Origin: Clostridia bacterium
GTDB taxonomy: Bacteria; Bacillota; DSM-521; Neomoorellales; JACIYF01
Direction of reading: 5' to 3'
DNA length: 64,000 bases
NCBI GenBank assembly: GCA_014360065.1
Contig: JACIYF010000003.1
Coordinates: forward strand, 1,567-65,566
Below are positions 11,604 through 33,986 of the stretch, in pieces (position 1 is the first letter of the stretch; every line of letters begins with the position of its first letter). The notes beneath the pieces were generated by a model. The model made no database searches and was not told the origin of the DNA. It saw nothing but the letters and a program-made list of their open reading frames with translations. The position numbers and the translations under genes were made by a program.

Positions 11604-12323
11604 CTAACCCCCCTTCTGCAAAAGCGCTAACCTGCGATTGAGAGCTGCCAGTGTGGCCCGACCAGCTGCCTCCCGGTCATCGCCGTGGCTAAAAGCAGCT
11701 CCAAGCAAGGTCTCCACATCCCGGCCGGACACCCTACCAATGCAGACCAGTATAACTTCTTGTTTGGCTAGTACCAACTTGGCAATATCTTCGATAACAA
11801 ATTGGCCGGGGTCCTCGAGATAGGCTTCCACCGCCTCCAAGGTAGCTACGGCTGCCAACCGCATCTGGTTGCGGGGCGTGCTAAGACCCGCAACCTGGCC
11901 CTGGTATACGTGTCCCCCCAGGGCTATTTCCACCCGAATCTCGGCCGAGGTGCCGCTCACGGTCAAGGTCATGCCCACCCAGCGCGGGCGAATGATAGGC
12001 AAGGGGTGGACCGCATCTGGCTCTTCCCCTTGAACCCTGGCCACGCTAATCTTACGATGGTCAACTTCCACCCCTAGGCGGGCCATAAGCGTCGATTCAA
12101 TATCTCGAGCTATTTGCTTGGGATTAACGCCCGATTCGGCCACCGCATGGATCTCGGCAATCTCGCCCCGGAGATCAGTTTTGACTCTAGCAGCAATAAT
12201 GCCCTTAATTTCTCGGATCACTTCCTCATACACCTGTGGTCCAGGTCCAAGGCGTTGCGGCTGCTTGACCTCATCCAAAAGCGCTTTTCCCTCCCGCACC
12301 AGTGTTGGCCTAGTATTCGACAT
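11604..12323 (-). CDS. Hypothetical protein (~239 aa), family not recognised
   Basis: The ORF is long with good codon usage. I prefer ATG 12323 (MSNTRPTLV, GAGGAAAAG upstream) over the AT-rich 12377 start. It sits upstream of hpf. Confidence 0.5.
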   Translation of the reverse strand: MSNTRPTLVREGKALLDEVKQPQRLGPGPQVYEEVIREIKGIIAARVKTDLRGEIAEIHAVAESGVNPKQIARDIESTLMARLGVEVDHRKISVARVQGEEPDAVHPLPIIRPRWVGMTLTVSGTSAEIRVEIALGGHVYQGQVAGLSTPRNQMRLAAVATLEAVEAYLEDPGQFVIEDIAKLVLAKQEVILVCIGRVSGRDVETLLGAAFSHGDDREAAGRATLAALNRRLALLQKGG

Positions 12324-12479
12324 AGATCCTAACTTTTCCTCTAAATCCAAAGCTAATCCAATAAAATTAACAAACAAATAAGCCGAGCCACTTATGCAAG
12401 CCGCTCGGTTGACTGCTTACATAAGTGGTCGGCTTATAATCGCAATCTGGTCGATCCGGCCTTTGAGGTCAGGCCTGGA

Positions 12480-13019
12480 CTATTCGGGCTCGATCAATCC
12501 GTAGTTGCCGTCCCTCCGGCGGTAAACCACGTTGATCTCATCAGTTTCGGCGTTGGCAAAAACAAAGAAGCTATGCCCAACCAGATTCATTTGCATGATT
12601 GCTTCTTCTACCGACATGGGTTTGAGGGGAAACTTCTTGGTACGGACAATTTTTCTCTGTTGCTCTTCCGCCTCCGCCTCGCCCAAAGCCAAGTTATTGG
12701 CGTTGACCAGATTTTTAAGGCCTTGCTCCCGCACCCGCTTGGCCAGTTTAGTCTTGTGTTTCTCTATCTGTTTCTCTAGCTTCTCCAATACCAGATCGAT
12801 CGAGGAGTACATATCCCCCGTCTCTTCTTCGCCTCGCAAGATCAAGCCGTTCAGAGGAATCGTCACTTCGGCCACGTGGCGATCGCCCTCAACTGAGAAG
12901 ACTACCTGCACCTGGTCTAGAGAGCCAAGGTAGCGCTCCAGTTTTCCCAGGCGCTTGGCCGCGTAATCCCGAAGCGCATCAGTGACGGGTACGTTCTTGC
13001 CACGTGTAATCAGCTCCAC
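12480..13019 (-). CDS. hpf: Ribosome hibernation-promoting factor, long form
   Basis: N-terminal MELITRGKNVPVTDALRDYAAKRLGKLERY and C-terminal dimerisation domain KPMSVEEAIMQMNLVGHSFFVF...VVYRRRDGNYGLIEP are both present. Confidence 0.9.
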   Translation of the reverse strand: MELITRGKNVPVTDALRDYAAKRLGKLERYLGSLDQVQVVFSVEGDRHVAEVTIPLNGLILRGEEETGDMYSSIDLVLEKLEKQIEKHKTKLAKRVREQGLKNLVNANNLALGEAEAEEQQRKIVRTKKFPLKPMSVEEAIMQMNLVGHSFFVFANAETDEINVVYRRRDGNYGLIEPE

Positions 13020-13199: not shown

Positions 13200-13397
13200 T
13201 TAAAGCCTTACTACGTTAGCAGCCTGTGGGCCTCGCGGACCTTCGACAATATCGAACTCCACTTCCTGGCCTTCGTCTAGGGTCTTAAACCCCTCACCTT
13301 GGATGGCAGAGAAGTGAACAAACACGTCACTACCGTCATCCTTGGTAATAAACCCATAACCCTTCTTTTCGTTGAACCATTTGACCTTGCCGTGCAT
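13200..13397 (-). CDS. CspA-family cold-shock protein
   Basis: [17 protein letters not shown]...DVFVHFSAI contains the RNP1 and RNP2 motifs. Length is 65 aa. Confidence 0.95.
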
Positions 13398-13558: not shown

Positions 13559-16066
13559 CTAAAGCTCCATCTCGGCCTGCGATGACTGGGAAAGCGGCAG
13601 GGCACAAAGCAAATATTTCCGGGCCAGCCCCTTCGCTCCCACCGACGCTAAAACATCGGCTATTCGCAGGTAATCTTGGCCCCGGCGAGGCGAGATCAGG
13701 AGCTCTAATTCATCAGCCACCGCCTGCTCGCCGCCAGTCGCTTTTACAACCCGAGCCAGAGAATAAAGCGGCGGCAGCCAAACCGGGTTGGACTTTAGCG
13801 CTTCCCGAAACGCCCGGGCAGCCTCCTCTTTGTGGCCCAAGCGCTCCCAGGCCAACCCCAGCCCGTGCCAGGCCCGAAAAGTGCCAACCCCATTGACCCC
13901 GCTATAGTGGGCGGAAGCGTCTCCCCATTGCAAACATGACTGATAGGCAAGGGCTGCTAGTTCCCATCTTCCTTGCTTAGCCAAAATCTCGGCCTTCAGG
14001 AACAACAGGTCGGTGAAGCCGGGAAACTGCTTCAAAGCGTTGTCGATCCAGGACAGGGCTGGTTCCAGCTGGCCCAGCTCCATCAAGCAGATGGCCCGCT
14101 TATAAGCTACGTCCGAGGCGTACCCAACCGCCTGCTCTAGCCGGAGATTGCTTAGCTGCTTTAAGGCCTCTTGGTATTTGCCCTCCTGGAAGTCTTCCAC
14201 TGCCAACGCATACTGCCAGTAAGGGTTGGCTGGGTCCTGCCTTCGGGCTCGCTCGAGCAGCCGGCGGTTGCGAGCACTCTTCTTTTTCGCCCCTACCCGC
14301 GGATCCAAATAGCCATAATGAAGGATAGTCACATTAGTAAAGCGAATGCTGTCAGGTCCAGCTTGCTCCCGGATGGAGTCAATTACCTGCTCGTGAATTA
14401 TGCCTCTAAACCTATACTCGGGCCGGCGCCGGAACAGCCGGCAGACATTGTCGGTCACAAAATCAGGTCCCACCGTTGATCCGTAGTAGTTGGCTATGCG
14501 TAGGCAATAAGCCTCCACGTCCTGGCGCCAAAGTAGCCGTCGCAGGACTGGGATATCCCTGGCTTGCAATTCCTCATCGGCATCCAATACCAAGACCCAG
14601 TCGCCTCGGGCCTGCTCCAAGGCATAATTGCGAGCACGAGCGAAGTCCTCGGGCCACGGCAAGGAAAAAACCCGGGCTCCCGCCTGTTTGGCCACCGCAA
14701 TAGTTCCATCCCTGGAACCAGTATCGACTACCACAATGTCGTCCACCGCCTGGACAGCGCTGGCCAGACACCGCCCCAGGCTTTCCTCTTCATCGCGGAC
14801 GATCAGGCACAGGCTGAGGGTAGGACGAGGAGAGGTCAATGTCTCCACCGCCTGGCGTAGCACTTTAAGCTCAGGCCACCGGCGGGCTAAACCACGGCTT
14901 TCCTCAACCCACCGGTCAAGCCGGTAGCGTATCAGTCTGATCCAACCCTCCTCAACCCATGGCGTCGCCTTAAGCTGCGGCAGTATTTTCGGCAAGGCAC
15001 AAAAGGCTTCGTCCTCCCCTCCTTCCCCCAATTGCAGTACCCGAAGAAGAGCTTGAGCTGCCGCTTCCAGTTCCCCCAATTGGCAACAGACTCTGGCTAA
15101 AGCAATCAAGGCTCTCCAGCTACCTACCCCCTTTTCGCTGGTAAACCAAGGCGGAGCATCCCCCATGGCCAGGCAGCGCTCCAAAGCCTCCTTTGCTGCG
15201 TCCAGCTGCCCCAGAGCGCCTAGGATTAACCCCTCCTGAAAGGGTAGGTCAGTATAGGCAGGAAACTTGGCCTCGGCCTCCCGGCAAGCCGAGAGTGCCT
15301 CTTCTAAACGGCCCAAAGCCATCAAGCAATCAATGCGCCTCTTCTCCAGCAACGAGGCAAAGCTCCAGGCCGGATCCAGGTTTTGGCGTGCCTTTTCATA
15401 GCTGGCCAGGGCTTCTGTCAGCTCACCAGCCCGCTGCCGTTCCACTCCCAGGTTGAAGAGGACAAAGGGATCATGCGGCCGCTCAGCTAATTCCAACTGT
15501 AATAGGCGGAGATTGCGGCGAATCTTGTCTCCGCTAGCCACTTGGGCGGCCAGGTAGCCAAAATGTTTCACTCGCACCCCAGCTATTTCGATGCACCCTT
15601 GGTTAGCAGCCACAATGCTGGGCAGGATCTGCTCGTGAACCCGGCCCTGCCAGCGGTACTGGGGTCGCCTCCGAAAAAGGCGCAAAGCTGGGCTTACCAC
15701 TTGCCGGCCCCGGTCATCGATCAGGCTATGGATTACAAGAAAGTAGGCCTCTACTCCCGGCCGGGATAGCAACTCCTTAAGGAGAGGAGCATCCTCAGGA
15801 AAGAGAGTCTCATCGGTATCAAGAAATAGGACCCATTGTCCACCCGCCTTGGAGAGAGCAAAGTTGCGAGCAGCGGCAAAGTCGTCCCGCCATTGGTAGC
15901 GATAAACGCGCGCCCCCAACCGCTTGGCCACCTCTTCGGTAGCATCGTTAGAACCGGTATCCACTACCACTATCTCATCCGCCACTGCTTTCGCACCAGC
16001 CAGACAAGCCTCAAGGCTTGGGGCCGCATCCTTGGCAATAACGCAAAAACTTAAGCTGGGCGGCAT
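13559..16066 (-). CDS. Tandem double module glycosyltransferase: (GT2 domain + TPR repeats) x2, 835 aa
   Basis: There are two GT-A/GT2 cores (SFCVIAKDAA..VVDTGSNDAT..DTDE and SLCLIVRDEE..VVDTGSRDGT..DADE), each followed by TPR-like helical repeats. Its start overlaps the upstream stop as TAATG. Confidence 0.8.
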   Translation of the reverse strand: MPPSLSFCVIAKDAAPSLEACLAGAKAVADEIVVVDTGSNDATEEVAKRLGARVYRYQWRDDFAAARNFALSKAGGQWVLFLDTDETLFPEDAPLLKELLSRPGVEAYFLVIHSLIDDRGRQVVSPALRLFRRRPQYRWQGRVHEQILPSIVAANQGCIEIAGVRVKHFGYLAAQVASGDKIRRNLRLLQLELAERPHDPFVLFNLGVERQRAGELTEALASYEKARQNLDPAWSFASLLEKRRIDCLMALGRLEEALSACREAEAKFPAYTDLPFQEGLILGALGQLDAAKEALERCLAMGDAPPWFTSEKGVGSWRALIALARVCCQLGELEAAAQALLRVLQLGEGGEDEAFCALPKILPQLKATPWVEEGWIRLIRYRLDRWVEESRGLARRWPELKVLRQAVETLTSPRPTLSLCLIVRDEEESLGRCLASAVQAVDDIVVVDTGSRDGTIAVAKQAGARVFSLPWPEDFARARNYALEQARGDWVLVLDADEELQARDIPVLRRLLWRQDVEAYCLRIANYYGSTVGPDFVTDNVCRLFRRRPEYRFRGIIHEQVIDSIREQAGPDSIRFTNVTILHYGYLDPRVGAKKKSARNRRLLERARRQDPANPYWQYALAVEDFQEGKYQEALKQLSNLRLEQAVGYASDVAYKRAICLMELGQLEPALSWIDNALKQFPGFTDLLFLKAEILAKQGRWELAALAYQSCLQWGDASAHYSGVNGVGTFRAWHGLGLAWERLGHKEEAARAFREALKSNPVWLPPLYSLARVVKATGGEQAVADELELLISPRRGQDYLRIADVLASVGAKGLARKYLLCALPLSQSSQAEMEL

Positions 16067-18081
16067 TAGGAATCACCTCGAGATAGGCGCTCCAGGCTCA
16101 CATCAATTGCCTCTTTCAGCGCCGCCAGCCGCAAGCTTTCGGGGAACTGGCGTTCCCCGTCTGCTAACCAAGCCGCGGCCTCCCGTAACCGGGCTTCTAC
16201 CAAGAGAAGGCTATTCCTGGGGGTGGGATTGAGCTCCGCTGCTTGTTGGTAGAAGATGGCTGCCTCTCGGTGGAGTCCTTTAGCTGTGCAGATTCTACCC
16301 ATGGCCAAGCACATCATTTCATCAGCTACTTTGGCTTCCAGCGCCTTGAGGTAAAAGTCGGCCGCCTCCGCTACCCACCCATGGCGGTAATAAAGGTGGC
16401 CCAAGCGAAGATAGTCCGCCCCACCCTCTAAAGCCGTGACTATCCGCAGGGCCAAATCCACGTGGCGACGGGAATGAGTCTCCAAGAGCCGCCCCAGAAG
16501 ATTCCAGGCTTCCCCTCTCTGTTCAACATCCCCGGGCTTGAGCTGGGGCGGAACGGAATCCGCCTCACCCCCCAAACAATAGGAGTAGGCTTGCCAGACA
16601 TCAGCAACCGCCTCCGTGGCCAGGGATGCTAAGCGCCGCAACAATGAATTCATGAGGCGCCAGCGCTCGCCAAGCGAGGCTGCCAGGATAGCTAGTTTTA
16701 GGGCTTCAGAATGGGAAGGACTGGGGAGCCATGCCTTTAGCGCCATGCGCAAAGCTTCTTTCCAATGCCCAATTTGCATCAGGCCCCGAGACTTCAACAG
16801 ATGCCAATCCTGGACCCCGCCTTCTTCCCAAGCTGGATCTTCGGGAGCAGGAAGGAACATTAACGCCGCTTGGCCTTCTCCGGCATCCAATAGCGCCTGA
16901 ACCAGGCTCTTTTGTCCGCTATGAACGCCAGGAGATGTCAGCTGCCGAACCGCTTCCGCCAGCTTCGCTCCCCCCAACCCCCGGCCGCGTAGCTCGCTTA
17001 TAAGGCCACTCCACGCTCCCCCGTGCTCGGGCATCAATTCCAAGGCCTTTAGAAAGCATTGGGCTGCCTTTCGTCCCTGACCCAGCTCCCCATAAATCTG
17101 CCCAAGCATCGCTAGAGCAAGGGGACCGTTTACCCCCACCGTGCTCACATAGCGACGAGGAGGATCGGCCATTTGGCAACAATGCTCCAGGATCTGAATT
17201 GCCTCCCGGTAGCGGCGCAGGCACCTTAGGGCCAAGGCCCGCAGGTAAAAAAGCTCCGGATAGTCGGGAAAGCGTTGGCACTCTTTCTCGAGAACGCTCA
17301 GGGCTTGCTGTGCGTCACCAGCATCCAAGAGGGCGATGGCCAGGTGACGCACCAAGGTGGGATAAAAATTGGTCTCACGGGGTAGCCGGTGGTAGAGCGG
17401 CCAAAACAGCTCCAGGGCCCCCTTGACATCCCGCTCTTGATAGCGAGTGATCCCCAAGTGATAACGCAAGAAGACGTCATTGGGGGTACAAGCCAGCGCT
17501 GCCTCCAGAATGACTCGGTTCCGAGCTGCTTTAGCCGCATTCTGTGCTTGTAGATACCCGTGGTGGCGGACGACTACCTCAGCTTCCAGGATGCGGGCTT
17601 GAGGGCGCGCCGACAGAATTGACGGCAGTATTTGTTCGTGGATAGCCCCAACAAAGGCATATTCAGGCCGGCGCCGGAAGAGACGCAGGTTGAGGTGGCG
17701 TAACACCTGAGCCCCTGGCAGATCAGTAGTAGGGCTTTCCACCTGAAAAAGGTAACCCTCCACCTGGTCCTCAGCTTCCAGCAAGCTGGGTATCAGCTCT
17801 TTTCCACCGGCCAATTCCTCATCGGCATCCAAGATCAGCGCCCAGTCGCCGGTAGCTCGGGATAGGGAGACATTGCGGGCCCGGCTAAAATTTTCCTGCC
17901 ACGGGTCGTGGTAGACCAAGGCTCCCAACTGCTGGGCCAACTCCGGGGTACCGTCATGGGAGCCCGTATCAACTACGATGACCTCATCCACCAGACCTCG
18001 GGTGCTTTCCAAGCAACGCTTCAAGCGGGGAGCTTCGTTCTTTACGATCATACAAAGACTTAGGGTTGGCCGTCCTGGCAT
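16066..18081 (-). CDS. GT2 glycosyltransferase with long C-terminal TPR-repeat region, 671 aa
   Basis: SLCMIVKNEAPRL..VVDTGSHDGT..FSRARN..ILDADEEL forms the GT2 core. The remainder is a TPR-like region. Confidence 0.8.
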   Translation of the reverse strand: MPGRPTLSLCMIVKNEAPRLKRCLESTRGLVDEVIVVDTGSHDGTPELAQQLGALVYHDPWQENFSRARNVSLSRATGDWALILDADEELAGGKELIPSLLEAEDQVEGYLFQVESPTTDLPGAQVLRHLNLRLFRRRPEYAFVGAIHEQILPSILSARPQARILEAEVVVRHHGYLQAQNAAKAARNRVILEAALACTPNDVFLRYHLGITRYQERDVKGALELFWPLYHRLPRETNFYPTLVRHLAIALLDAGDAQQALSVLEKECQRFPDYPELFYLRALALRCLRRYREAIQILEHCCQMADPPRRYVSTVGVNGPLALAMLGQIYGELGQGRKAAQCFLKALELMPEHGGAWSGLISELRGRGLGGAKLAEAVRQLTSPGVHSGQKSLVQALLDAGEGQAALMFLPAPEDPAWEEGGVQDWHLLKSRGLMQIGHWKEALRMALKAWLPSPSHSEALKLAILAASLGERWRLMNSLLRRLASLATEAVADVWQAYSYCLGGEADSVPPQLKPGDVEQRGEAWNLLGRLLETHSRRHVDLALRIVTALEGGADYLRLGHLYYRHGWVAEAADFYLKALEAKVADEMMCLAMGRICTAKGLHREAAIFYQQAAELNPTPRNSLLLVEARLREAAAWLADGERQFPESLRLAALKEAIDVSLERLSRGDS

Positions 18082-18119
18082 ACCCTACCACCTTCTTCTT
18101 AAAGCTAAACCCCTCGCGC

Positions 18120-18818
18120 CTAGACTTGCGCGTTGTAGAAGATGTCCAGCGTAGTGGCGGCCGGAGCAGCATAGGCAATCCGGGTATACTTCATGAACAC
18201 CCGGGCCACATAGGCTTCGATGGTGCCAGCCGCCAGGGTCTGAGCTGCGGTATCGATATACCAAATATTGGCATCCGGACTGGCTTCAATGCGGATGGTA
18301 GCATCCTGGGTGCCGCTGTTATAAACGGCAAAGGTGTATTTGCTCATTTGCGACGTGTCTTGAGCTGGCACAAATGAGTAGTCAGTGCTGGTGGCAACGT
18401 TGAGCCAACTCAACTCGGTAAAGGCCCGAGCCTGCAGATTGGTCTGCAGGTTGTTGTTGGCATCCTGGGCCAGCGGCGAATCGGCCGAACCATATACCCG
18501 TACGTGGTCAGAAAGAGTCAGGTCCCGGATGTCTAGATTGCTAGCGGTTACGCTTACGACATCAGAAATGCTGGCCACCTGGAGCAGGCCGTCGCTGGTC
18601 TGCGCCAAGGCCGCGCCTTGATTGCCATAAACCATTACATGATCAGTAAGGGTCAGGGCCCGGATGTCTAGGCTGGTAGCAACGACGGTAACCGCTTCCG
18701 AAATGCTGGCAATTTGCAGAAGCCCGTCGGTAGTCTGGGCTAAGGCAGCTCCTTGGTTGCCAAAGATTTGGGTGCGTAGCTTTTCCGGCTCGATGTTGAA
18801 CACAACATTGTTAGGCAT
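18120..18818 (-). CDS. Repeat-containing protein, paralog of the upstream gene (shared C-terminal ~110-aa domain; possibly the family annotated DUF6385)
   Basis: GGAGGG lies before ATG 18818 (MPNNVVF). There are two 45-aa tandem repeats (GNQGAALAQT.DGLLQ.ASIS..V.V.A..LDIR.LTL.DHV.VY). The C-terminus YTFAVYNSGTQDATIRIEASPDANIWY...FMKYTRIAY parallels the neighbour. Confidence 0.6.
   Translation of the reverse strand: MPNNVVFNIEPEKLRTQIFGNQGAALAQTTDGLLQIASISEAVTVVATSLDIRALTLTDHVMVYGNQGAALAQTSDGLLQVASISDVVSVTASNLDIRDLTLSDHVRVYGSADSPLAQDANNNLQTNLQARAFTELSWLNVATSTDYSFVPAQDTSQMSKYTFAVYNSGTQDATIRIEASPDANIWYIDTAAQTLAAGTIEAYVARVFMKYTRIAYAAPAATTLDIFYNAQV
18492..18761 (-). repeat. 135-bp tandem coding repeat (2 copies) inside the 232-aa protein
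   Basis: Residues 20-64 and 65-109 are about 80% identical by eye. The DNA repeat is visible as recurring ...gccaaggc.gc.ccttg.ttgcc... blocks. Confidence 0.7.
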
Positions 18819-18918
18819 TTTGCTTCTCCCTCCTTTCTGGTTGGCCTTTCCTTGTATCCCGTTCTCTATCCAGGTTATGAAAGAAATAGAAGCGAGGTGC
18901 TTATCCAACTGCAAAGAT

Positions 18919-19986
18919 TTAGGCCTGGGACTGAAACCATATTACTAGGGAAGTGGTGGTTATGGCCTGGTAAGCCAGGCGGGCATAGCGAAGAAAGAAG
19001 CGAGGAGCAAGAACCAGAAGCTTTCCTGCCAGTATTGGTTGTTCCGGCGTATCATCCACCCAGTTAAGACCATCGGGGCTAATCTGCATCCTAACCGAAG
19101 CAGTGGCAGCGCCGGTATTCAGGACGGCATAGGAGTAGACCCGAAGGGTAGAAACATCGCGATCAGCAGTAAAGGCCCATGTTGGTGTGGCTGTGACTTC
19201 TTCCCTAAATTCAGCATAAGCCCGCTGGGCCACTTGGACCTGAGCTAAGCCTTCTGTAGTAGTAGCCAGCGGTGAAGGGCTGCTGCCATACACCCGCACC
19301 CCATCGCGAAGGGGGCTAAGGTCGCGAATGTCCGCAGCAACCGTGGCCTGAACGGTTATGGGCAGGGGCCCGGCCAACCGCACCGGCTTTAAGATCTCCC
19401 CCACCGTGTCCACATGGCGGACGAAGACTCGACCCTTCTCATCCAAGCGCAGCGCCCGGACGGGGTAAAGGCGATAGGCCTTGATTGCTTGAATACTGAT
19501 CCGGCCCGGCCCAACTATCCCTACCTCTAGCCAGAAAGAGGCGGTACCGCTGGCGGTAGTAAAAACCCGAGTAAAGGTCTCCGGCTCAAGACCTGGTCTT
19601 AGCAGGAATTCGATCTGCGTGGTCAGATAGCCAGCCGCCGTACCCATGTATACCCGCAAATAGCATTCGCTGCCCGGCGGGTCAGCCTGGAGTTGGACCT
19701 GAACTTTCCAACGCTGGATTTGGCCAGCCGGTACCGCTACCTCTCGCTCCTGCAGCACTCCTGCCGGCGGACCCGACGGGTGGACGATGACCACGGAACG
19801 CGGCCCAGATGGGGTGCCAACCCACTCCCAAGTGGTAGCGGCATCGCCTCCGACCCGGAGCCAGCCATCGGGAAAATTGGGTTCCGCCTCCTGGGCCCAT
19901 TGGAAATCACCATTATAGACTTGGTCGATTAGCTCTCTGCCTCTATGCACCTGTGTCCCCCAACCCTTCCCAGGCTTCACTGCCAT
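18919..19986 (-). CDS. 355-aa protein: N-terminal CBM/jelly-roll-like domain plus the same C-terminal domain as the downstream paralog
   Basis: The N-terminus NGDFQWAQ...FPDGW resembles the start of a carbohydrate-binding-module. The C-terminus DIRDLSPLRDGVRVYGSSPSPLA...YSYAVLNTGAATASVRMQISPDGLNWV...FLRYARLAY aligns with ORF 18120..18818. No obvious RBS. Confidence 0.6.
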   Translation of the reverse strand: MAVKPGKGWGTQVHRGRELIDQVYNGDFQWAQEAEPNFPDGWLRVGGDAATTWEWVGTPSGPRSVVIVHPSGPPAGVLQEREVAVPAGQIQRWKVQVQLQADPPGSECYLRVYMGTAAGYLTTQIEFLLRPGLEPETFTRVFTTASGTASFWLEVGIVGPGRISIQAIKAYRLYPVRALRLDEKGRVFVRHVDTVGEILKPVRLAGPLPITVQATVAADIRDLSPLRDGVRVYGSSPSPLATTTEGLAQVQVAQRAYAEFREEVTATPTWAFTADRDVSTLRVYSYAVLNTGAATASVRMQISPDGLNWVDDTPEQPILAGKLLVLAPRFFLRYARLAYQAITTTSLVIWFQSQA

Positions 19987-20089
19987 TGTATGCCAGACCT
20001 AGGTAAAGGGTTAGCGAATCGCCCAAACCCCTGTGGCAACAGCCGCAGTTTTGGGGTTGTGGGCAAGTTACACTCAACTCTAATTGGGC

Positions 20090-21043
20090 TTAGCGGGGAA
20101 CAAAGTGCTGGGAGTAGAATAGGTCGAACCAACCGGTTAACTTCACTTGCCTCAAGCCGTGGTTGATCTTGGCCCTTAGGAATTCGTCGTCTTTCCCTAT
20201 GGCTATGGCCAGCGGTATCTCTGAGCTCTCCTTGGCGGAGTCCGCCGTCGAGTCGGCTCGCAATCCGCTTTTTGTCAGCTCCAAGCCAGCCAGCACCAAT
20301 CCCGCCTGAGGATGGCGATCCAGGATGTATACCAGCGATGGCCGGTCTCCGAGCAGTGCTTGGATTTTACCCGATAGCAGATCTTCCCAGGCTTTATCCA
20401 GGCTGGGATAGGGTTGGAGCTGAGCGTTATTAGGCAAGCCCTTCAGTTGCTTCTCCTTTGCCAACTGAGCAGTCGGCCCTACCACTCCCACCTTTTTTCC
20501 TGCCAAATCCCCTAAGGCTTTGATGGTGGCGCCTCGGGGCGCACAAAGGGCCAGCCTAACTGTCAGATAGGCATCTGAAAAGTCAACCTCTTTGGTAAGC
20601 CCCTCGGTAGGAGAAAGGGCGCCAATGGCTGCATCGATGGTTCCAGCTTTGAGGGCTGCCCATAAGCCTTCTTGATCCAAAACTTTGACTTTAACTTCCA
20701 TGCCTTCCGCTTGAGCTATAGCCCGGATCAGTTGTAGGTCGAAACCAGTGAGCTCGCCGGTTTTCGCATCCCGATAAGTGAATGGTGGATGGGTGGCAGT
20801 GGTACCTACCCACAGAATGGACTTAAGCCCGGCCTCTGGCTGGCGAGCGGCTGGCTGGCTACCACACCCCTGTAGGCTGAAGACCGAAAGACTAGCCACC
20901 GCCAACCATAGCAAGGCTGCGATTATGTATTTCCCCTTGTTACCCTCATCCAATCCCAACCAGCCCCTTTTTCCCAAAAGTTTCCTCGCCCTCCGCTCCG
21001 TCCAGCCCTCAACCGTTCGCGCAGCCCCCGTTTGGTTTTTCAT
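20090..21043 (-). CDS. Amino-acid ABC transporter substrate-binding lipoprotein (family-3 SBP), with no cognate permease or ATPase nearby
   Basis: GTTATHPPFTYRD..TGELTGFDLQLIRAIA..GTIDAAIGALS is the SBP_bac_3 pattern, and SLSVFSLQGCG is lipobox-like. The start is ambiguous: ATG 21043, or TTG 20953 preceded by AAAGGGG. Confidence 0.75.
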   Translation of the reverse strand: MKNQTGAARTVEGWTERRARKLLGKRGWLGLDEGNKGKYIIAALLWLAVASLSVFSLQGCGSQPAARQPEAGLKSILWVGTTATHPPFTYRDAKTGELTGFDLQLIRAIAQAEGMEVKVKVLDQEGLWAALKAGTIDAAIGALSPTEGLTKEVDFSDAYLTVRLALCAPRGATIKALGDLAGKKVGVVGPTAQLAKEKQLKGLPNNAQLQPYPSLDKAWEDLLSGKIQALLGDRPSLVYILDRHPQAGLVLAGLELTKSGLRADSTADSAKESSEIPLAIAIGKDDEFLRAKINHGLRQVKLTGWFDLFYSQHFVPR

Positions 21044-21190
21044 TGCTCGGTTACGGCGCCTGGCCGCATGGAACAGCACGGAGAGAATGAGATGACCCTC
21101 CTCTAGCATTCCATGAGGAGGGCCGGTGCTATTCGCCGTCGAAAGACCCTAGCGCAATTCGACAAAGTGGATTAACGGGGCTTGGGATTC

Positions 21191-21242
21191 TGTGGATAAC
21201 CTTGTTCATAAGTGCCCTTTTCGGGCCTCTGGCTGTGGATAA
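21191..21242. promoter_or_regulatory. Two perfect DnaA boxes (TGTGGATAA = complement of TTATCCACA) in direct orientation
   Basis: Exact 9-mers sit at 21191-21199 and 21234-21242, with a 2-mismatch copy (AGTGGATTA) at about 21165. All are in the intergenic region upstream of the SBP gene. Confidence 0.45.
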
Positions 21243-21303
21243 GTTTGCGGATATGCGAATGTCGGCGGAAATGGAAATTTCTGTAGCGATCGCTGTCGAA
21301 ATT

Positions 21304-22386
21304 TTATTCCCATTTCCAAAACCGAACCGCTACCACTAAGGTGGCCACCGCCCAGGCCACCAGAACCAAAAGGTCGGTGGGCAAAGAGTACAGAGGCGTA
21401 GCTTCCACCATGACCTGGCGCAGGGCATCGCCCAGGTAGGTGAGGGGCATGGCCTTTAGCACTGGCTTTAGGAACGCCGGCATGAATTCTACTGGGAAAA
21501 AGATGCCGGAGAGAAACATCATGGGGAACTGCACCACGTTGGCCAGCCCCACCGCGCTTTCCTCAGTCTTGCACAGCGACACCAACAGATATCCCAGGCT
21601 TACAAAGGTAGCCGCGCCCAGCACTACGATCCCGAGGACCTTGAGCCAACTGCCAATGACGGTAACATGGAAGACCAGATAACCAATAACCACTATGGTT
21701 AGAGTCTGCACTAAAGCCATGAGGAACCGTACACTGATCTCCGCACCTAGGAGCGTCCACCGAGGCAGCGGGGTTGCTCCCAGGCTCTTTAAGATTTTCT
21801 GTTCCCGCAAGCTGACTAGGTGTAAGGCCCCAAAAATACCTAGCTGCATAAGAGCCATAGCCAGGATGCCCGGGAGGAGGTAATCAATGGTCCTTAGTTC
21901 CTTGGGTTGGACTGCTTGGGACTGAACCCTAAAGATCTGGGGGCGATGGGTGATGCCTCTCTCGATGCCATCCAAAACTTGCGCGATTACTGGCACGAGT
22001 ACTTGCCCCGAAGCCTGCTGGCTGGCATCGTAATATACGGGTATCTGCACCGGCTGGCCGGAGGTCACCGCCGGCCCCACTTCCTCGGGTATAACGATTA
22101 CCGCCCGCCGGTCCCCCTTGGTCAAAGCATTGAGCTCCTGGTCCCTGGTTCCTTGGTGAATCTTAAACGAAGCAATTGACCCCAGGGCGCGGGATATCTG
22201 CTCAGCAACCGGGTCTTGGGACTCAGCCACCAACCCAACGTCAAAGCTGCTGGATCCCTCGTTGGCAAAAACCGCTCCGAAGATGAGAATGAATATAACC
22301 GGGAACACCAGGAACCAAAAGATAGCCATCCGGTCCCGGACCAATTCTTTGACATTAGCCACAAACAGCTCGGCGAAAGTCTTCAT
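21304..22386 (-). CDS. ABC-2-type exporter permease
   Basis: 360 aa with an N-terminal TM segment, a large extracytoplasmic loop and 5 C-terminal TM segments. It overlaps the upstream ATPase gene by 4 nt. Confidence 0.8.
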   Translation of the reverse strand: MKTFAELFVANVKELVRDRMAIFWFLVFPVIFILIFGAVFANEGSSSFDVGLVAESQDPVAEQISRALGSIASFKIHQGTRDQELNALTKGDRRAVIVIPEEVGPAVTSGQPVQIPVYYDASQQASGQVLVPVIAQVLDGIERGITHRPQIFRVQSQAVQPKELRTIDYLLPGILAMALMQLGIFGALHLVSLREQKILKSLGATPLPRWTLLGAEISVRFLMALVQTLTIVVIGYLVFHVTVIGSWLKVLGIVVLGAATFVSLGYLLVSLCKTEESAVGLANVVQFPMMFLSGIFFPVEFMPAFLKPVLKAMPLTYLGDALRQVMVEATPLYSLPTDLLVLVAWAVATLVVAVRFWKWE

Positions 22387-23312
22387 TCCCGGATCCTCCT
22401 GCCTGTAAGCTTTAAAAATACGTCCTCCAGGGTAGCCCGCCTGACCACCACATGATCGATGGGGCTTTGACCGGTGGCTTCTTTTTTCCTAGTTGCATAG
22501 GCCATCAGGGCGGCGATGGTACCAGCCACATCAGTACTGTACAGGGTAACCTGGTCGCCCTCCACCTGTACCCGATTTACCCCTGGCAAGTGCTGGAACT
22601 CATCTCCATCAGTAGCCGGAGAATTGGTAAACTCGATGGCTTGCTCTCGAAAATTCTCATCAATCAGCTCGGACGGCGATCCACAGGCCAATACCCGGCC
22701 ATGGTCAATGACCAGCACCCGGTCGCATAGATGCTCCGCCTCATCCATGAAATGGGTGGTGAGAAAGACGGTCTTGCCTTGGCGCTTAAGATCCAGGATG
22801 GCGTCCCAAAGGGTGTGGCGCGCTTGCGGGTCCAGACCAGTGGTGGGTTCATCTAAGAACAAGATATCACCGCCGCTGACCATCGCCAGCCCCACTGCCA
22901 GGCGTTGCAGCTGCCCACCGGACAGGGCTTTAGTTTGGACGCGAGCTTTATCCGCCAATCCTACCCGTTCAAGTATTTCTGGTAGCGAGATTTTCCGAGG
23001 ATAAAAGCTGGAAAAGAGCTTTAAAGTCTCGAGGACAGTAAGGCGGGGGTACATCCCTCGCACTTGCAACTGCACGCCAATGCGCGACTTTACCGCTTGT
23101 GGCTCGCGGCCAGGATCTTTCCCCAATACCAGGACCTCGCCGGCGTCCCGCTCCCTTAAACCTACTAGGATCTCCACAGTGGTGGTCTTGCCGGCGCCGT
23201 TTGGTCCCAGCATGCCGAAAATTTCCCCGCTTTCCACCGCAAAGTCTACCCCGTCTACGGCCCGGACTGGGCCATAGCTCTTACGCAGTCCGGAAACGGT
23301 GATGCTTTCCAC
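22383..23312 (-). CDS. ABC transporter ATP-binding protein (DrrA/CcmA-like)
   Basis: Walker A GPNGAGKTT, signature LSGGQLQR, Walker B ILFLDEPTTGLD and an H-loop are present. Confidence 0.9.
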   Translation of the reverse strand: MESITVSGLRKSYGPVRAVDGVDFAVESGEIFGMLGPNGAGKTTTVEILVGLRERDAGEVLVLGKDPGREPQAVKSRIGVQLQVRGMYPRLTVLETLKLFSSFYPRKISLPEILERVGLADKARVQTKALSGGQLQRLAVGLAMVSGGDILFLDEPTTGLDPQARHTLWDAILDLKRQGKTVFLTTHFMDEAEHLCDRVLVIDHGRVLACGSPSELIDENFREQAIEFTNSPATDGDEFQHLPGVNRVQVEGDQVTLYSTDVAGTIAALMAYATRKKEATGQSPIDHVVVRRATLEDVFLKLTGRRIRE

Positions 23313-23477: not shown

Positions 23478-23852
23478 ATGTTGCTGCCGCTTACGGCCAA
23501 AAATGTGGTTTTGAAGCTGCTCGGGTTCGGATCAGTTTTGGCACTGGGAAAGAGTTTGCGCCCCACCCTCTACCCGTCGGCCCCACCCATCCTGGCTACT
23601 GCCACAGTCCTGACCTTGGTAGGAGCGGTAGCTGACCTAGTGATCGTGCCTAAATTGGGCAACCTGCCTTCACTCAACCTTGGCTTTCCCGGCATGACCA
23701 GCATAATCTGGGGAACGGCCAAGCTGTGGCCCAGAACCAACGTTTCCTTGGCCCAGGCAGCTACCTTAGCCCTTATGGCAGCCCCGATTGAGTACATCTT
23801 ACATAGGATGGTTTTACAAAATATAGGCCGGCAAAGCGCCGGCCACCGCTAG
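23478..23852 (+). CDS. Small membrane protein (YndM/DUF2512-like)
   Basis: 124 aa with about 4 TM segments. AAAGGGGTGAG lies 8 nt before the ATG. The family call is from memory only. Confidence 0.4.
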   Translation: MLLPLTAKNVVLKLLGFGSVLALGKSLRPTLYPSAPPILATATVLTLVGAVADLVIVPKLGNLPSLNLGFPGMTSIIWGTAKLWPRTNVSLAQAATLALMAAPIEYILHRMVLQNIGRQSAGHR

Positions 23853-24259
23853 CTGGATCTACCTTCTCTTAGAAAGGCAGCCAGAGCTTTATCCGCCCCC
23901 ATGATATGCTGGGTTAACCAGTCCACCACCTTACGGTTGATAACCACCACCAACCTTAGGGTAGCCCCTTCACTCTCAAACTGCTGCTTGAGATTGCCGA
24001 TGTCCTGGATAAACTGATCGTGTAACTGCTTGTGGGTTGGGTACTCAGGGTAATGATGGTCTTGTTGAAGTTTCTCCTCAGCGCGGAAATGGGTTTTTAC
24101 ATAGTCTTCCAGGAAGTTGAGCATTTCTTCCACTACTTCTTTGCCTTTACCTTGGTTACATGCCTCAAGCAGCTGGTTGATCCGCTTGATCAATTCCTGG
24201 TGCTGCTGGTCAATTAGGTCTACACCGGTGGCAAGGCTGGCGCTCCATTGCATGGCCAA
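23849..24259 (-). CDS. Bacteriohemerythrin
   Basis: W..SLATGV.LIDQQHQELI, H.....FL..Y...HF..EE and H...H are the hemerythrin His/Glu/Asp iron ligand pattern. Length is 136 aa. Confidence 0.85.
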   Translation of the reverse strand: MAMQWSASLATGVDLIDQQHQELIKRINQLLEACNQGKGKEVVEEMLNFLEDYVKTHFRAEEKLQQDHHYPEYPTHKQLHDQFIQDIGNLKQQFESEGATLRLVVVINRKVVDWLTQHIMGADKALAAFLREGRSS

Positions 24260-24276
24260 GACGTCCCCCCATCAAG

Positions 24277-25653
24277 TTAGTTGCCATAGAGATTCGGCGT
24301 TGGCTCTAGTTTTCCTTCACTTTGCTTTAGGAGCTCGATGGGGTGGACGGCAGATATGCCGGTGTGGCCCCAAAGCTGAACTTGGCACATCCCGCACTCG
24401 GTGGCTACCAGACGGGCATTGCTGGCAGCCAAGGATTCAACCAAGGAGCGGGCGATGCGCCGGCTAGCCGGATAGCGTTCTTGCTTCAGGGCATAGGTCC
24501 CCGCCGCCCCACAGCAGCTATCCGCTAGCGGTACAATATTGAGGCCGACCACCCGGCGCAGTAGCTCAAGTCCAGGAGCTCCAATGCCCTGGGCGGCCAG
24601 GTGGCAAGGCAGGTGATAGGCCACCGGCAACCCCGGCGGCCGGGGCGACCGCTGACCGCCGGTTACGGAATTCTCCAAGACAAACTGGCAGGCGTCGACC
24701 ACCGACCGGCTTAGGCTAAAAGCAGCAGGTCCCGGAACCAGGCTAGGATAAACCTCCTTTAGCACTAGGGCACAGCTGGGGCATAAAGCCAAGACCGGCA
24801 GGTCCGGATGCAATGCCCTGCCCAGAGATGGAGACGGTAGCAGAGTCAGCAGCTGCTCAAAGTGGCGCAGGTTACTTCCGGCCCACCGGGTCGCTTGCCG
24901 GCTGTCTCCGTTGGCCAGAGCCGGGAGGCCACAGCAGGCTGAATCCAACAGATAAAGCTGGCATCCCCATCCACTAAGAAGTCTTTTTAAGGCCTGGAAG
25001 GCTTGAGGTCGGCAGTAGCGATAGAAGCAACCCAGAAAGACCGCCACTACTTGCGGTAATGTTGGGGTGAAGCTACTTAGCTGGCCGGGCCGGTCAAGGT
25101 GGCCAGGTTCAGGTCCGGCCGAAGCCGGTTGAGCGGCAGCTACCCTAACCCACCCAAAGGTAGTTTCCGGGCGGGAGCTAAACCGGGGTAAAGGCTGGTC
25201 GGGGCTTATTCCTAGCCCCCAAGCCAAGGCCTTCCGGACCAGGTGGCGCCGCCCTAGCCAGTTAACGACCCTGGCCAGCAGCGCCGCCCATCGCCCCCAC
25301 GATGACCCCCGAGCCAAAAACCACTTGCGCAAAGATAGCATAAGACTAGGGAGCTTAGCTTTAGGCCTCCAGGACTGGATCAGATCCGCTACTGGTACTC
25401 CAGCCGGGCAAGCGATTTGGCAGCGCCGGCAACCGTTGCAACCCGCCAACGCCGAGTAGGGCGGCACCTGATAGGAAGGATGTCGTCGCCACCAGGCCAC
25501 CAGCGACTTGGGACCAGGAAAGGTGGGGTCTATACCATAAACCGGGCAAGCATCTAGGCAGATGGCGCAGCGCAGGCATGCCTCAAGAGACCAAGAAGCC
25601 CGAGCTAGCCCATGTTCTTCGCCCCAGCTTGGAACTTGCTGGCCTGTTGCCAT
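24277..25653 (-). CDS. glpC: Anaerobic glycerol-3-phosphate dehydrogenase subunit C (Fe-S/CCG-domain protein)
   Basis: There are two ferredoxin-type motifs (CLRCAICLDACP, CNGCRRCQIACP) and two CCG-type Cys motifs (CCGLPA, CCGAAG). ATG 25653 follows GGTAGGTGGG. Confidence 0.75.
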   Translation of the reverse strand: MATGQQVPSWGEEHGLARASWSLEACLRCAICLDACPVYGIDPTFPGPKSLVAWWRRHPSYQVPPYSALAGCNGCRRCQIACPAGVPVADLIQSWRPKAKLPSLMLSLRKWFLARGSSWGRWAALLARVVNWLGRRHLVRKALAWGLGISPDQPLPRFSSRPETTFGWVRVAAAQPASAGPEPGHLDRPGQLSSFTPTLPQVVAVFLGCFYRYCRPQAFQALKRLLSGWGCQLYLLDSACCGLPALANGDSRQATRWAGSNLRHFEQLLTLLPSPSLGRALHPDLPVLALCPSCALVLKEVYPSLVPGPAAFSLSRSVVDACQFVLENSVTGGQRSPRPPGLPVAYHLPCHLAAQGIGAPGLELLRRVVGLNIVPLADSCCGAAGTYALKQERYPASRRIARSLVESLAASNARLVATECGMCQVQLWGHTGISAVHPIELLKQSEGKLEPTPNLYGN

Positions 25654-25660
25654 GACGCCC

Positions 25661-25694
25661 ACCTACCTACCTACTTACTTACTTACCTAGTAAG
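25661..25694. repeat. Tetranucleotide microsatellite (CTAC)3(TTAC)3 in the glpAB-glpC spacer
   Basis: The sequence is acCTACCTACCTACTTACTTACTTACctagtaag. On the coding (minus) strand it reads GTAA x3 / GTAG x3 and runs into the glpC SD-like GGTAGGTGG. Confidence 0.8.
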
Positions 25695-25706
25695 CTTTGG
25701 CCCCTT

Positions 25707-28565: not shown

Positions 28566-28583
28566 TCACCTTTAGTGCCTGCC

Positions 28584-28636
28584 AAAAAGAAAAGCCCTAC
28601 TGGCCTGCGCCCCTACAGCGCCGGCTCGTAGGACTT
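28584..28636 (-). terminator. Strong intrinsic terminator in the glpP-glpA spacer (candidate GlpP antitermination target)
   Basis: The minus-strand RNA is AAGUCCUAC-GA-GCCGGCGC-UGUAGGG-GCGCAGGC-CA-GUAGGGCUU followed by UUCUUUUU. It ends 18 nt before the glpA ATG. Confidence 0.6.
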
Positions 28637-28666
28637 CTCGCCTTCTCCAGCCCTAACTATCAACTT

Positions 28667-28691
28667 TATAGATACAAGATATAGATACAAG
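28667..28691. repeat. Perfect 12-bp direct repeat TATAGATACAAG x2 (1-nt spacer) in an AT-rich island of the glpP-glpA spacer
   Basis: The copies at 28667-28678 and 28680-28691 are identical. Function is unknown (operator or promoter element?). Confidence 0.7.
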
Positions 28692-28741
28692 AATAGACAT
28701 ACGCCACCCGGGCCGAGAATCCTGCCTGCAACCCCACCCCA

Positions 28742-29353
28742 TTAGTCGCCAGTATAATTCCAAACTGCCCGGTAGCTAGTACTGACCGCCAAAGCTCCAG
28801 CTGCCAGCGCATCCCTGGCTTCTTGAGGCTTTCGGATCAGTCCTCCGGTAATGATGGGAAGCTTAAGCGACTGGCATATTTGGGCAATAATCCGGGGCGG
28901 GAGCACCCCCGGCAATATCTCCACCGCGTCCGGGTGGCAGGACCGGGCCATGCGCACCCCAGTCCGAATAGCATCAGTATCTACCAGGAATAGTCGGATT
29001 ATGCTGAGCAGGTTTTCCGACTTTCCTGCCTCGACTAAATTAGCCCGGGTGGTAATGAGGCCGTCAGCACCCAAGCGGGCTAAGTACCTGACTCCTGCCG
29101 CATCCTTACCCAGGCCCTCAATTAGATCCAAGTGCACCAGGATGAACTTACGCCGCCGGTGGACGCTCTCAATGGCTGCCGGTAGCGACATTAAGTCGCC
29201 GCTAAGTAGGAAGATGGTGCGCAGGCGAGGATGGCTTACCACCTCCGGTAGGTCTTCTAGCCGCCGCACCGCAGCGATGAGTGGAAAGGGACCTACCAAT
29301 TCTTCTAGGCTTGGTTTCTGGGTTGACCTTGACGGCCAGCTCTCCGTGGTCAT
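28742..29353 (-). CDS. glpP: Glycerol uptake operon antiterminator GlpP
   Basis: IAAVR..EDL, IFLL.GDL, VHLDLIEGLGKD..G..YL, GLITTR and PIITGGLIR match the GlpP (G3P_antiterm) family. I prefer ATG 29353 (GGGGG upstream) over 29431. Confidence 0.8.
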   Translation of the reverse strand: MTTESWPSRSTQKPSLEELVGPFPLIAAVRRLEDLPEVVSHPRLRTIFLLSGDLMSLPAAIESVHRRRKFILVHLDLIEGLGKDAAGVRYLARLGADGLITTRANLVEAGKSENLLSIIRLFLVDTDAIRTGVRMARSCHPDAVEILPGVLPPRIIAQICQSLKLPIITGGLIRKPQEARDALAAGALAVSTSYRAVWNYTGD

Positions 29354-29408
29354 GTTTGCCCCCTGCCTACCCGCCCTAACCAGGCTAGCATTCCAGGCTA
29401 GCATCAGC

Positions 29409-29437
29409 TTGTCAAGCCCGGCCAGGACCATTATATC
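29409..29437 (+). promoter_or_regulatory. Candidate sigma-A promoter driving a long plus-strand leader toward the glycyl-radical enzyme gene
   Basis: TTGTCA (29409-14) is followed by 17 nt and then TATATC (29432-37). A second -10-like TATAAT lies at 29664-69 without a good -35. Both are speculative. Confidence 0.3.
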
Positions 29438-29948
29438 CTGAATATTGCCGGCCCGCCACTACCCTTCCACCCTCGCTGCCAAACGGCCAGGCTACCTTGG
29501 TGACAGCAAGGGTGGAGGCGGGCCAGCGGAGACTCCCAGCCAACGAGGGTGCCAGGAAGCATAGTTCGCCAGCGCCCAAACTTCGTACTTGAGATGCTAG
29601 GCGAAAGAACCGATAAAAAACTTTTCTTATTTTCTAGCAGGAATGCGGGCACATTTGTTTAATTATAATAGCGTGGAGTTTTCCGACCTTTAGCATCGAT
29701 AACTTGACCAAGGCCGGGCTGGGAGAAGGCTGAGACAGCCCTTACTAAGCGCCAACCCAAAACCTAGGGCGCTCTGGTAAGGGCTTACTTAATTCCTGGG
29801 TTGCTATTCTAAGGCAGTGCCTTATGGGAGTAGCTGCACAAGCAGGCATGAAAAGGCACGTAGGGGATGCTGGGGCGCTGGTCCGGAAGCGACATTAAGC
29901 CGAGCGGCTAAGCCACCTTAGCGACGGCGAGGGTGGAGGCAGGTCAGA

Positions 29949-30044
29949 CCCAGCACTCAACTCACGAATCCAGGCATGAGGTCCGCCTTGGGCAGGCAGC
30001 AGGTTAATTAGAGTGCTGTGGTCTGCCGGCAGTTGAGTGCTGGG
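29949..30044 (+). promoter_or_regulatory. Leader element A: 14-bp perfect long-range stem CCCAGCACTCAACT / AGTTGAGTGCTGGG enclosing 68 nt, upstream of the GRE gene
   Basis: The arms are at 29949-29962 and 30031-30044. An inner hairpin is GGCAGGCAGCA...TGCTGTGGTCTGCC. A partial second 3' copy (AGAGTGCTGTGG) lies at 30010-30021. The 5' arm and flank are near-identical to element B. Confidence 0.6.
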
Positions 30045-33931: not shown

Positions 33932-33986
33932 CTAGAAGAAACAGCGCCTCAGCTAGAAATATATGTTTTGCGGAGGAGGGTTTATC

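Follow-up and report, generated by a model that had tools for sequence, protein, structure and literature searches.

Within the 64,000-nucleotide (nt) stretch of Clostridia bacterium contig JACIYF010000003.1 that we analysed (hereafter the window), an operon of four genes at 13559-19986 encodes two small paralogous proteins that end in a DUF6385 domain (paralogs A and B) and two large enzymes in which family 2 glycosyltransferase (GT2) domains are combined with tetratricopeptide repeats (TPRs). We put forward, at about even chances, that this is a late-sporulation mother-cell operon making glycosylated proteins of the outermost spore layer, analogous to SgtA-BclA3 of C. difficile. An earlier note on this DNA had proposed proteins as the targets of the GT2-TPR enzymes, with the two paralogs as substrates or structural partners; homology to GmaR and SunS and a conserved gene linkage speak for this, and do not establish whether the paralogs are acceptors or lectin-like partners. 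Among the surface, spore and fibre roles that the same note had listed, the spore is favoured by sigma-K-type promoter motifs, by spore-forming hosts and by CgeB/YkvP-like glycosyltransferases at related loci, although these do not establish a spore location, and the S-layer option is disfavoured by the lack of signal peptides. The spore location, the identity of the glycosylated protein and the fibre or oligomer state of the DUF6385 proteins are what we infer from this evidence.

Operon layout and conserved linkage

All four co-directional minus-strand open reading frames (ORFs) described in the earlier note are present (Table 1). The two small proteins, which it had called paralogs, align with 31% identity over 229 amino acids (aa; E 8e-28). 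Pfam matches agree with its assignment of the 671-aa protein as GT2+TPR, and the 835-aa protein is indeed a duplication of that module, its halves being 42% identical over 346 aa (E 1e-76). We also verified in the sequence that the start of the 835-aa gene overlaps the preceding stop as TAATG, and each of the three GT2 domains counted in total retains a DxD motif. The DUF6385-type domain that the note had suggested looking for was found in both paralogs, where PF19912 exceeds its cut-off of 26.8 with scores of 94.3 and 84.0 bits and matches the C-terminus over model positions 1-81 of 82. Its impression that signal peptides are lacking was borne out for all four proteins, and transmembrane segments are likewise absent from them.

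The association of the two gene types was followed in a genome scan with one genome per species, which gave 22 DUF6385 loci, all in Bacillota, of which 17 had enough flanking sequence; a neighbour was counted as GT2-TPR if it was a homolog of the window enzymes at E <= 1e-38 within a few kb. Of these 17 loci, 13 have such a neighbour. Among the exceptions, one locus has a TPR-only neighbour and another adjoins spore photoproduct lyase. In a metagenome scan seeded with the paralog A family, three GT2-TPR genes were present in four of five usable loci. Desulfosporosinus acidiphilus SJ4 has the same linkage, plus a YkvP/CgeB-like transferase. Sampling in the reverse direction, from glycosyltransferase homologs in named genomes, we found DUF6385 adjoining in three of four (D. 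reducens MI-1, a D. ruminis-like contig and D. hydrothermalis); the full-length homolog of Thermodesulfitimonas autotrophica lies between flagellin and flaG-fliD-fliS-fliT, beside a substrate of the type established for GmaR. The earlier note had suggested that its proposal would fall if the paralog family occurred mostly without GT2-TPR genes, and the linkage, seen from both sides and in most genomes, points the other way.

The entire operon is retained in close relatives. Across clades the gene order changes (A-B-GT-GT, B-GT-A or divergent operons) and the trio persists. Since the linkage is reciprocal and survives such rearrangement, the neighbourhood of DUF6385 and GT2-TPR genes is not incidental. 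In all of the first six distinct contexts DUF6385 is paired with glycosyltransferases, and further genes there include rmlACBD, a GT2-methyltransferase, a sulfotransferase with adenosine 5'-phosphosulfate (APS) kinase, and GT1/GT4 enzymes. Recurring neighbours at DUF6385 loci that point to a spore-surface role are yabG, splB and, at several of the loci, CgeB/YkvP-type glycosyltransferases (PF13524 with DUF3880/YkvP_N).

The ABC transporter and substrate-binding genes at 20090-23312 were considered as members of the system and rejected, as they are kept in the closest relatives only.

Glycosyltransferases related to protein-modifying enzymes

In the 671-aa enzyme a GmaR-like glycosyltransferase domain at residues ~2-190, with its DxD at 85-87, is followed by TPR/alpha-helical repeats up to the C-terminus. 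The 835-aa enzyme has two such domains, at ~2-194 and 412-627, with DxD motifs at 83-85 and 495-497. PF00535 scores 71.5 bits in the former and 149.3 bits, over two stretches, in the latter, and TPR Pfam matches follow the glycosyltransferase domain in both.

The best match among solved structures is the glycosyltransferase domain of GmaR (chain 22ao), found with E-values of 1.4e-30 and 2.8e-31 over residues 2-190; as read off the printed alignment, about half of the aligned residues are identical over ~190 positions. Next come SunS and its relative 7msk, the SunS homology spanning ~210-290 residues. The best NCBIfam model is likewise that of the SunS family, TIGR04195, which the window enzymes fail with 133.2 and 47.3 bits against a cut-off of 350. 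For the C-terminal MogR-binding antirepressor region of GmaR there was no match at E <= 1e-3, only the glycosyltransferase-domain chain being matched. The closest characterised relatives of these domains are therefore all enzymes that act directly on proteins or peptides.

Read through in translation, the ~4 kb around the operon contain no flagellin-like ORF, small Cys-rich precursor, C39-peptidase transporter or thiol-disulfide oxidoreductase, and in the syntenic relative L010 no flagellin or glycocin genes were found over ~10 kb on each side. That the enzymes are of the GmaR flagellin type or the SunS glycocin type, with DUF6385 next to them by accident, is therefore very improbable, despite GmaR and SunS being the top characterised homologs, the homolog inside the Thermodesulfitimonas flagellin locus and the position of the window operon just upstream of cspA-hpf: such substrate-type genes are missing, SunS scores far under its cut-off, the antirepressor part of GmaR is unmatched, and the DUF6385 linkage is reciprocal and withstands rearrangement.

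Promoter motifs and hosts

The sigma-K consensus that we applied is the established one of B. subtilis. It consists of AC at -35, a spacer of 16-17 nt and CATAnnnTA at -10, and was scanned as AC-N16-17-CATAnnnT. Sigma-K logos have been described (PMC517825). The pattern occurs upstream of 21 of 54 DUF6385 genes versus 3 of 54 on the reverse strand. With the initial 51 genes it was present in 20, compared to 17 of 268 control genes from the same loci (odds ratio 9.5, p 8e-9), and mononucleotide shuffles of the same 51 gave an expectation of ~1.8 occurrences; CATAnnnT alone showed no strand bias. Two other promoter types were tried and rejected for lack of enrichment, namely sigma-E (-35 element, 1 versus 1 between strands) and sigma-A upstream of the DUF6385 genes (3 versus 7).

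Two candidates of the sigma-K type, P1 and P2, were found in the window operon (Table 1). P1 runs into the annotated ATG 19986, sharing its final two bases with the start of that codon, and a conserved form of the block, ...GGCATAGGAT, is found in the relative L011. P2 begins 80 nt upstream of ATG 18818, and equivalents are present in L010/L011 (ACCCTTTGGCTACTGTTTTCATAACTT) and in L005. The CATAnnnT boxes of P1 and P2 are at 19985-19992 and 18872-18879. Judged from the motif, the DUF6385 operon would be sigma-K-dependent. At the Desulfosporosinus-type loci L034, L037 and L043-L047, which share conserved upstream blocks, the first DUF6385 gene is preceded by AGTG(C/A)TATTT-N13-CGATAGGATA and the divergent glycosyltransferase operon by GTTTCAGTTTT..GCATATAGTAT; the strict sigma-K pattern fits partly there.

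Every host that we found belongs to Bacillota, and those in culture, all of which we take to be endospore formers, are Desulfosporosinus, Desulforamulus, Desulforadius, Tepidibacter and Sporosalibacterium.

The DUF6385 proteins

A search with a profile of DUF6385 plus the repeat recovered 1,331 clusters at 50% identity. The domain models as a confident small jelly-roll, whose best Foldseek matches among solved structures are PirA, PBSX XepA and the Bacillus endospore-appendage subunits Ena1B, Ena2A, Ena1C and Ena3A. The resemblance to the Ena subunit fold has an E-value of 2.4e-4 and a template modelling (TM) score of 0.56. Against viral models (BFVD) its matches were to small jelly-rolls of virions and to the C-terminal ends of proteins with collagen repeats. 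The window paralogs have no Pfam match to DUF3992, the Ena family, and their cysteine count is zero in paralog B and one in paralog A.

Paralog B consists of a conserved MPNNVVF N-terminus, two 45-aa Ser/Thr-rich repeats and the DUF6385 jelly-roll at residues 154-231. Its repeats read ..DGLLQIASISDxVxVTAxxLDIRDLTLxDHVxVYG, the general unit being ..DGxLxIASISDxVTVTATxLDIRDLTxxDxVxVYG. The repeat region contains 18% Ser+Thr and is hypervariable across relatives; among homologs the DLDIRDL unit is present in 1-5 copies, with three in P0001, a homolog from a Moorellales metagenome-assembled genome. The C-terminal domain, at residues ~140-232, is predicted as a confident beta-sandwich with a predicted local distance difference test (pLDDT) score of 80-93. 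In the Desulforamulus reducens homolog the same N- and C-termini enclose unrelated Thr/Pro-rich repeats (GLAITPPSGG/TPPTNG).

This D. reducens MI-1 protein (CP000612, L049:6838-7884, minus strand) is an MPN-type DUF6385 protein of 348 aa that the precomputed Pfam hits had missed, and its middle is built of GLAITPPSGG, TPPTNG and TSTG without DLDIRDL. Its gene is divergent from a three-gene GT2-TPR operon and is flanked by two related Cys-rich proteins of 140-152 aa to which no function is assigned. Many copies of the DLDIRDL repeat are also found in larger proteins (P0027, P0034, P0039, P0060, P0070, P0084, P0089 and P0091), reaching 1391 and 1655 aa, whose C-terminal domain is ...RTNRDNQAQDLYSTISG instead of DUF6385. 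This repeat might serve generally as a fibre shaft, joined to one or another of several terminal domains.

Paralog A comprises a jelly-roll head (residues 20-172), a low-confidence linker (176-255) with one DIRDL...VRVYG unit, and the DUF6385 jelly-roll (277-354). The head has a pLDDT of ~90 in the AlphaFold2 (AF2) model and matches, in Foldseek, carbohydrate-binding modules (CBMs) of the types CBM4-2, CBM16 and CBM22 and a hyaluronan-binding module, with target-normalised TM scores of ~0.66-0.73 and E ~1e-8. The earlier note had described a 355-aa protein with a CBM-like N-terminus; the N-terminus is CBM-like at the level of fold (AF2, Foldseek), the basis of the label, and carbohydrate binding is a prediction from it, whereas the length is probably 343 aa.

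In other lineages the positional counterpart of this gene has a genuine CBM96 domain as its head, again on a DUF6385 base (for example 99 bits in L024). A CBM96 identity of the paralog A head was rejected, as the window protein has no match to CBM96 (PF24517) at E <= 0.01 in Pfam and a profile-profile comparison of its head family with the CBM96-type heads of the other lineages detected no homology (hhalign probability 0.6%). Since two heads without detectable homology thus occur on the same base, DUF6385 behaves as a constant base with interchangeable outward parts. CBM96 is described as an alginate-binding family (PMC9971899). At L021:12269-14098 (plus strand), between a GT2-TPR gene and a CBM96+DUF6385 gene, lies a gene for a 609-aa protein that fuses CBM96 to TPR repeats and has no GT2 domain, a Rosetta-stone-like link of a lectin-like head with a TPR module.

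Proposed mechanism and alternatives

In the spore-layer model, two sigma-K-type promoters would drive paralogs A and B, the glycosyltransferase genes being transcribed by read-through. As the four products are soluble and have no export signals, they would come together in the cytoplasm of the mother cell, the site of synthesis of coat and exosporium proteins. There the GmaR/SgtA/SunS-like GT2 domains would glycosylate protein directly from nucleotide sugars, with the TPR regions recognising the acceptor, for which the Ser/Thr-rich repeat and linker segments of the DUF6385 proteins would be the likeliest candidates. The three GT2 domains could provide one initiating and further elongating steps, or separate specificities for each paralog. 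The shared C-terminal jelly-roll would be an assembly or anchoring domain, and the variable N-terminal parts would be exposed, as a repeat stalk in paralog B and a CBM-like head in paralog A.

Several observations weigh against this model. Outside the operon the window holds a single, weak sporulation marker, a SafA-type LysM domain; the GT2-TPR family occurs beyond Bacillota as well, in Actinobacteria and Syntrophobacteraceae; and 4 of the 17 usable genome loci have no adjacent GT2-TPR gene. The promoter motif is short and some of the loci are related, so that the counts are not fully independent. Upstream of Desulfosporosinus-type genes the strict sigma-K motif was not found, and the conserved blocks of those loci (CGATAGGATA and GCATATAGTAT) fit it partially. 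On the side of the proteins, the structural matches of the DUF6385 jelly-roll are generic and of fold level only (TM 0.5-0.65), the domain is not accompanied by a Cys-bearing N-terminal connector of the Ena type, and the repeat regions, modelled as monomers, give a low-confidence fold (pLDDT < 50), so that a fibre is not shown. A literature search for DUF6385 returned no paper that mentions it and no experimental datum, and one for spore proteomes of Desulfotomaculum or Desulfosporosinus returned nothing usable.

The main alternative, itself unlikely, is that the GT2-TPR enzymes build a polysaccharide of the spore or cell surface (compare the crust glycans of B. subtilis) to which the DUF6385 proteins are lectin-like anchors. 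The CBM4/16/22-like head of paralog A, its positional counterparts with a genuine CBM96, and the CBM96-TPR fusion at L021 are what such a reading would predict, and the many loci with GT1, GT4, CgeB-like and sugar-nucleotide genes, or with sulfotransferase and APS kinase, would suit a complex glycan. However, the nearest characterised relatives of the enzymes all modify proteins or peptides, paralog B combines Ser/Thr-rich hypervariable repeats with the lack of a CBM, and the window operon contains no polyprenyl-phosphate transferase, flippase, polymerase or membrane-spanning glycosyltransferase. The acceptor and lectin readings are compatible, in that paralog A could bind a glycan primed on protein.

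A non-spore role appears improbable to a greater degree. The genes would then form a phage-derived or vegetative fibre or particle set (for example an XepA/PirA-like released protein, or a defence or toxin component), glycosylated in the cytoplasm and released by lysis. Suggestive in this respect are PirA, PBSX XepA and many small phage jelly-roll or virion proteins among the top Foldseek matches, the likeness of the paralog A head to tailspike, Cry and Vip3 domains in the fold search, and the presence of the DLDIRDL repeat in large proteins with other C-terminal domains. Yet a tblastn search of paralog B against 50,697 phage records gave no match, no PHROG family was found for either paralog, the loci lie in the chromosome among housekeeping genes, with phage genes absent, the sigma-K-type motif is enriched, and the hosts are restricted to spore formers. 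A phage origin of the DUF6385 module itself was rejected on the same tblastn and PHROGs results, together with BFVD matches that are generic jelly-roll folds only.

Comparison with known systems

In C. difficile, SgtA, composed of a GT-A domain and TPRs, adds O-linked N-acetylglucosamine (GlcNAc) to Thr in the BclA3 repeats and is encoded beside bclA3 (PMC7157674); both bclA3 and CD3350 (sgtA) are sigma-K-dependent (PMC3789822). The window operon shares with this pair the architecture, a soluble GT-A/GT2 plus TPR enzyme, and the adjacency of its gene to that of a repeat protein; the spore-surface location would follow from the motif, the host range and the neighbours. The N-terminus of SgtA, MITISLCMI as read from a published primer, shares the beta-1 motif with the window enzymes (PTLSLCMIVKNE), the comparison extending over that segment. 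The systems differ in that BclA3 is collagen-like, with (GXX)n repeats and a BclA C-terminal domain, whereas the window paralogs have no collagen repeats, and in that SgtA has 358 aa and one glycosyltransferase domain, compared to 671 + 835 aa and three domains in the window.

GmaR of Listeria monocytogenes, the flagellin O-GlcNAc transferase and MogR anti-repressor, has the layout GT-TPR-helical and transfers GlcNAc to flagellin (PMC9638930). It resembles the window enzymes in its GT2 domain, TPRs and further helical region and in size (637 aa, versus 671 aa for the single-module enzyme), and acts in the cytoplasm on a filament protein. Unlike in Listeria, no antirepressor region is matched in the window and no flagellar genes are nearby, and one of the window enzymes is tandemly duplicated. 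SunS and ThuS, the glycocin enzymes, likewise join a GT2 domain to a C-terminal helical, TPR-like domain and glycosylate their peptide acceptor directly, but they are of ~420 aa, the window scores lie far below the family cut-off, and precursor, transporter and oxidoreductase genes are absent.

Among structural counterparts, Ena (DUF3992) of the Bacillus cereus group is a small jelly-roll subunit that forms spore fibres and is made in the mother cell without a signal peptide, and the BclA nap has a repeat stalk of variable length and a C-terminal beta-sandwich and is glycosylated. The window paralogs have no sequence relationship to either and possess neither a Cys-rich N-terminal connector nor collagen repeats. 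The crust of B. subtilis (cgeB, ykvP, sps) is similar in that cytoplasmic mother-cell glycosyltransferases decorate the outermost spore layer, and different in that the window operon has no CgeB-type gene and that CotX, CotY, CotZ and CgeA are unrelated to DUF6385.

The earlier note knew of no characterised system of this composition. This holds for DUF6385, of which no system has been characterised, and needs qualifying in view of the analogues SgtA-BclA3 and GmaR-flagellin. The window module is nevertheless set apart from SgtA-BclA3, GmaR and SunS by a different partner family, the lack of collagen repeats, the missing antirepressor match and the failed SunS model.

More tentatively, and with the balance somewhat against so broad a claim, DUF6385 proteins might constitute a hitherto unrecognised type of structure on the endospore surface, the third besides the collagen-like nap of BclA and the Ena pili, one that is widespread in anaerobic Clostridia (Desulfotomaculia, Moorellia, Desulfitobacteriia and Peptostreptococcales), modular, with a base bearing a hypervariable Ser/Thr-rich stalk or either of two unrelated CBM-type heads, O-glycosylated by GmaR-type enzymes and controlled by sigma-K. 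Spore surfaces govern adhesion, dispersal, immune recognition and interactions with metals, and their composition outside Bacillus and C. difficile is almost unknown, including in the sulfate-reducing and acetogenic spore formers of subsurface, corrosion and nuclear-waste settings. DUF6385 together with GmaR-like GT2-TPR enzymes offers a conserved and tractable candidate set, with Desulforamulus reducens MI-1 (locus at 1.513-1.531 Mb of CP000612) and Desulfosporosinus acidiphilus SJ4 (0.582-0.603 Mb of CP003639) among the cultured and sequenced hosts, and the proposal is the first functional hypothesis for DUF6385, covering a sizeable family. It also supports a rule by which a soluble GT2-TPR enzyme is encoded beside the filament or surface protein that it modifies: flagellin, BclA3 and now DUF6385.

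Gene boundaries

Two gene starts depart from the earlier description. The 232-aa protein had been placed 4 nt after the upstream gene; it is a paralog as claimed, and its ATG 18818 lies 100 nt past the upstream stop. The 4-nt spacer fits only a TTG-initiated ORF of 264 aa starting at 18914. That start was rejected, and ATG 18818 is preferred because it is preceded by a strong ribosome-binding site (RBS), GGAGGG, and because the MPNNVVF N-terminus is kept in aligned homologs. For paralog A the start is probably GTG 19950, which gives 343 aa: the RBS GGGGGA and a start codon are conserved among relatives, the homologs start 5-15 residues ahead of the conserved NQVYNGDF, and residues 1-16 are disordered in the AF2 model. 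Paralog B and the 671-aa glycosyltransferase gene are separated by a 38-nt gap. In a scan of the operon for intrinsic terminators, this gap included, nothing rose above background.

Table 1. Positions in the window of the genes, promoter candidates and repeat of the DUF6385 operon
Feature	Position	Strand	Description
Paralog A, DUF6385	18919-19986	minus	355-aa ORF
Paralog B, DUF6385	18120-18818	minus	232 aa
GT2+TPR glycosyltransferase	16066-18081	minus	671 aa
(GT2+TPR)x2 glycosyltransferase	13559-16066	minus	835 aa
Sigma-K-type promoter candidate P1	19985-20011	minus	ACCCTTTACCTAGGTCTGGCATACAAT; AC-N17-CATAcaaT; motif scan
Sigma-K-type promoter candidate P2	18872-18898	minus	ACCTCGCTTCTATTTCTTTCATAACCT; AC-N17-CATAaccT; in the 100-nt spacer
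Tandem DNA repeat within paralog B	18490-18762	minus	period 135 nt (45 aa); 2.0 copies; 75% match

Other features of the window

The operon is followed immediately by a gene for a cold-shock protein (13200-13397, minus strand) and by hpf, which encodes the ribosome hibernation factor (12480-13019, minus strand). The former has a perfect sigma-A promoter at 13487-13459 (minus strand), TTGACA-17-TATAAT, matching at 12/12 positions. In B. subtilis, hpf follows fliD-fliS-fliT, and in the Thermodesulfitimonas locus L050 the homologous GT2-TPR gene sits in a hag-flaG-fliD-fliS-fliT block; for these two reasons the DUF6385 operon might occupy the position of a former flagellar locus. Further on, a 257-aa ORF (11604-12377, minus strand) has a conserved counterpart on the downstream side of hpf in the relative L010, split there into calls of 230 + 83 aa. 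Neither this ORF nor one of 590 aa at 56511-58283 (plus strand) has a Pfam or NCBIfam match.

A cluster related to glycerol occupies 23849-35914. Its minus strand encodes a hemerythrin, a CCG/Fe-S protein, a 952-aa GlpA-like FAD oxidoreductase and a GlpP-type antiterminator, and its plus strand a glycyl-radical enzyme resembling pyruvate formate-lyase (30018-32576), after which come an ORF of 378 aa that may be its activase and, at a greater distance, one of 501 aa whose N-terminus looks glycerol-kinase-like by eye. The LysM domain of the SafA type belongs to a 446-aa protein (36044-37384, plus strand) with four LysM domains, one of which passes the SafA/ExsA spore-coat-assembly model (83.6 bits versus 67.85). 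At 39742-43029 (minus strand) a 513-aa GT4 glycosyltransferase adjoins an Amidase_3 protein, also of 513 aa, that has a peptidoglycan-binding domain and three S-layer homology (SLH) domains, a gene pair that indicates an S-layer or an SLH-anchored cell wall in this organism.

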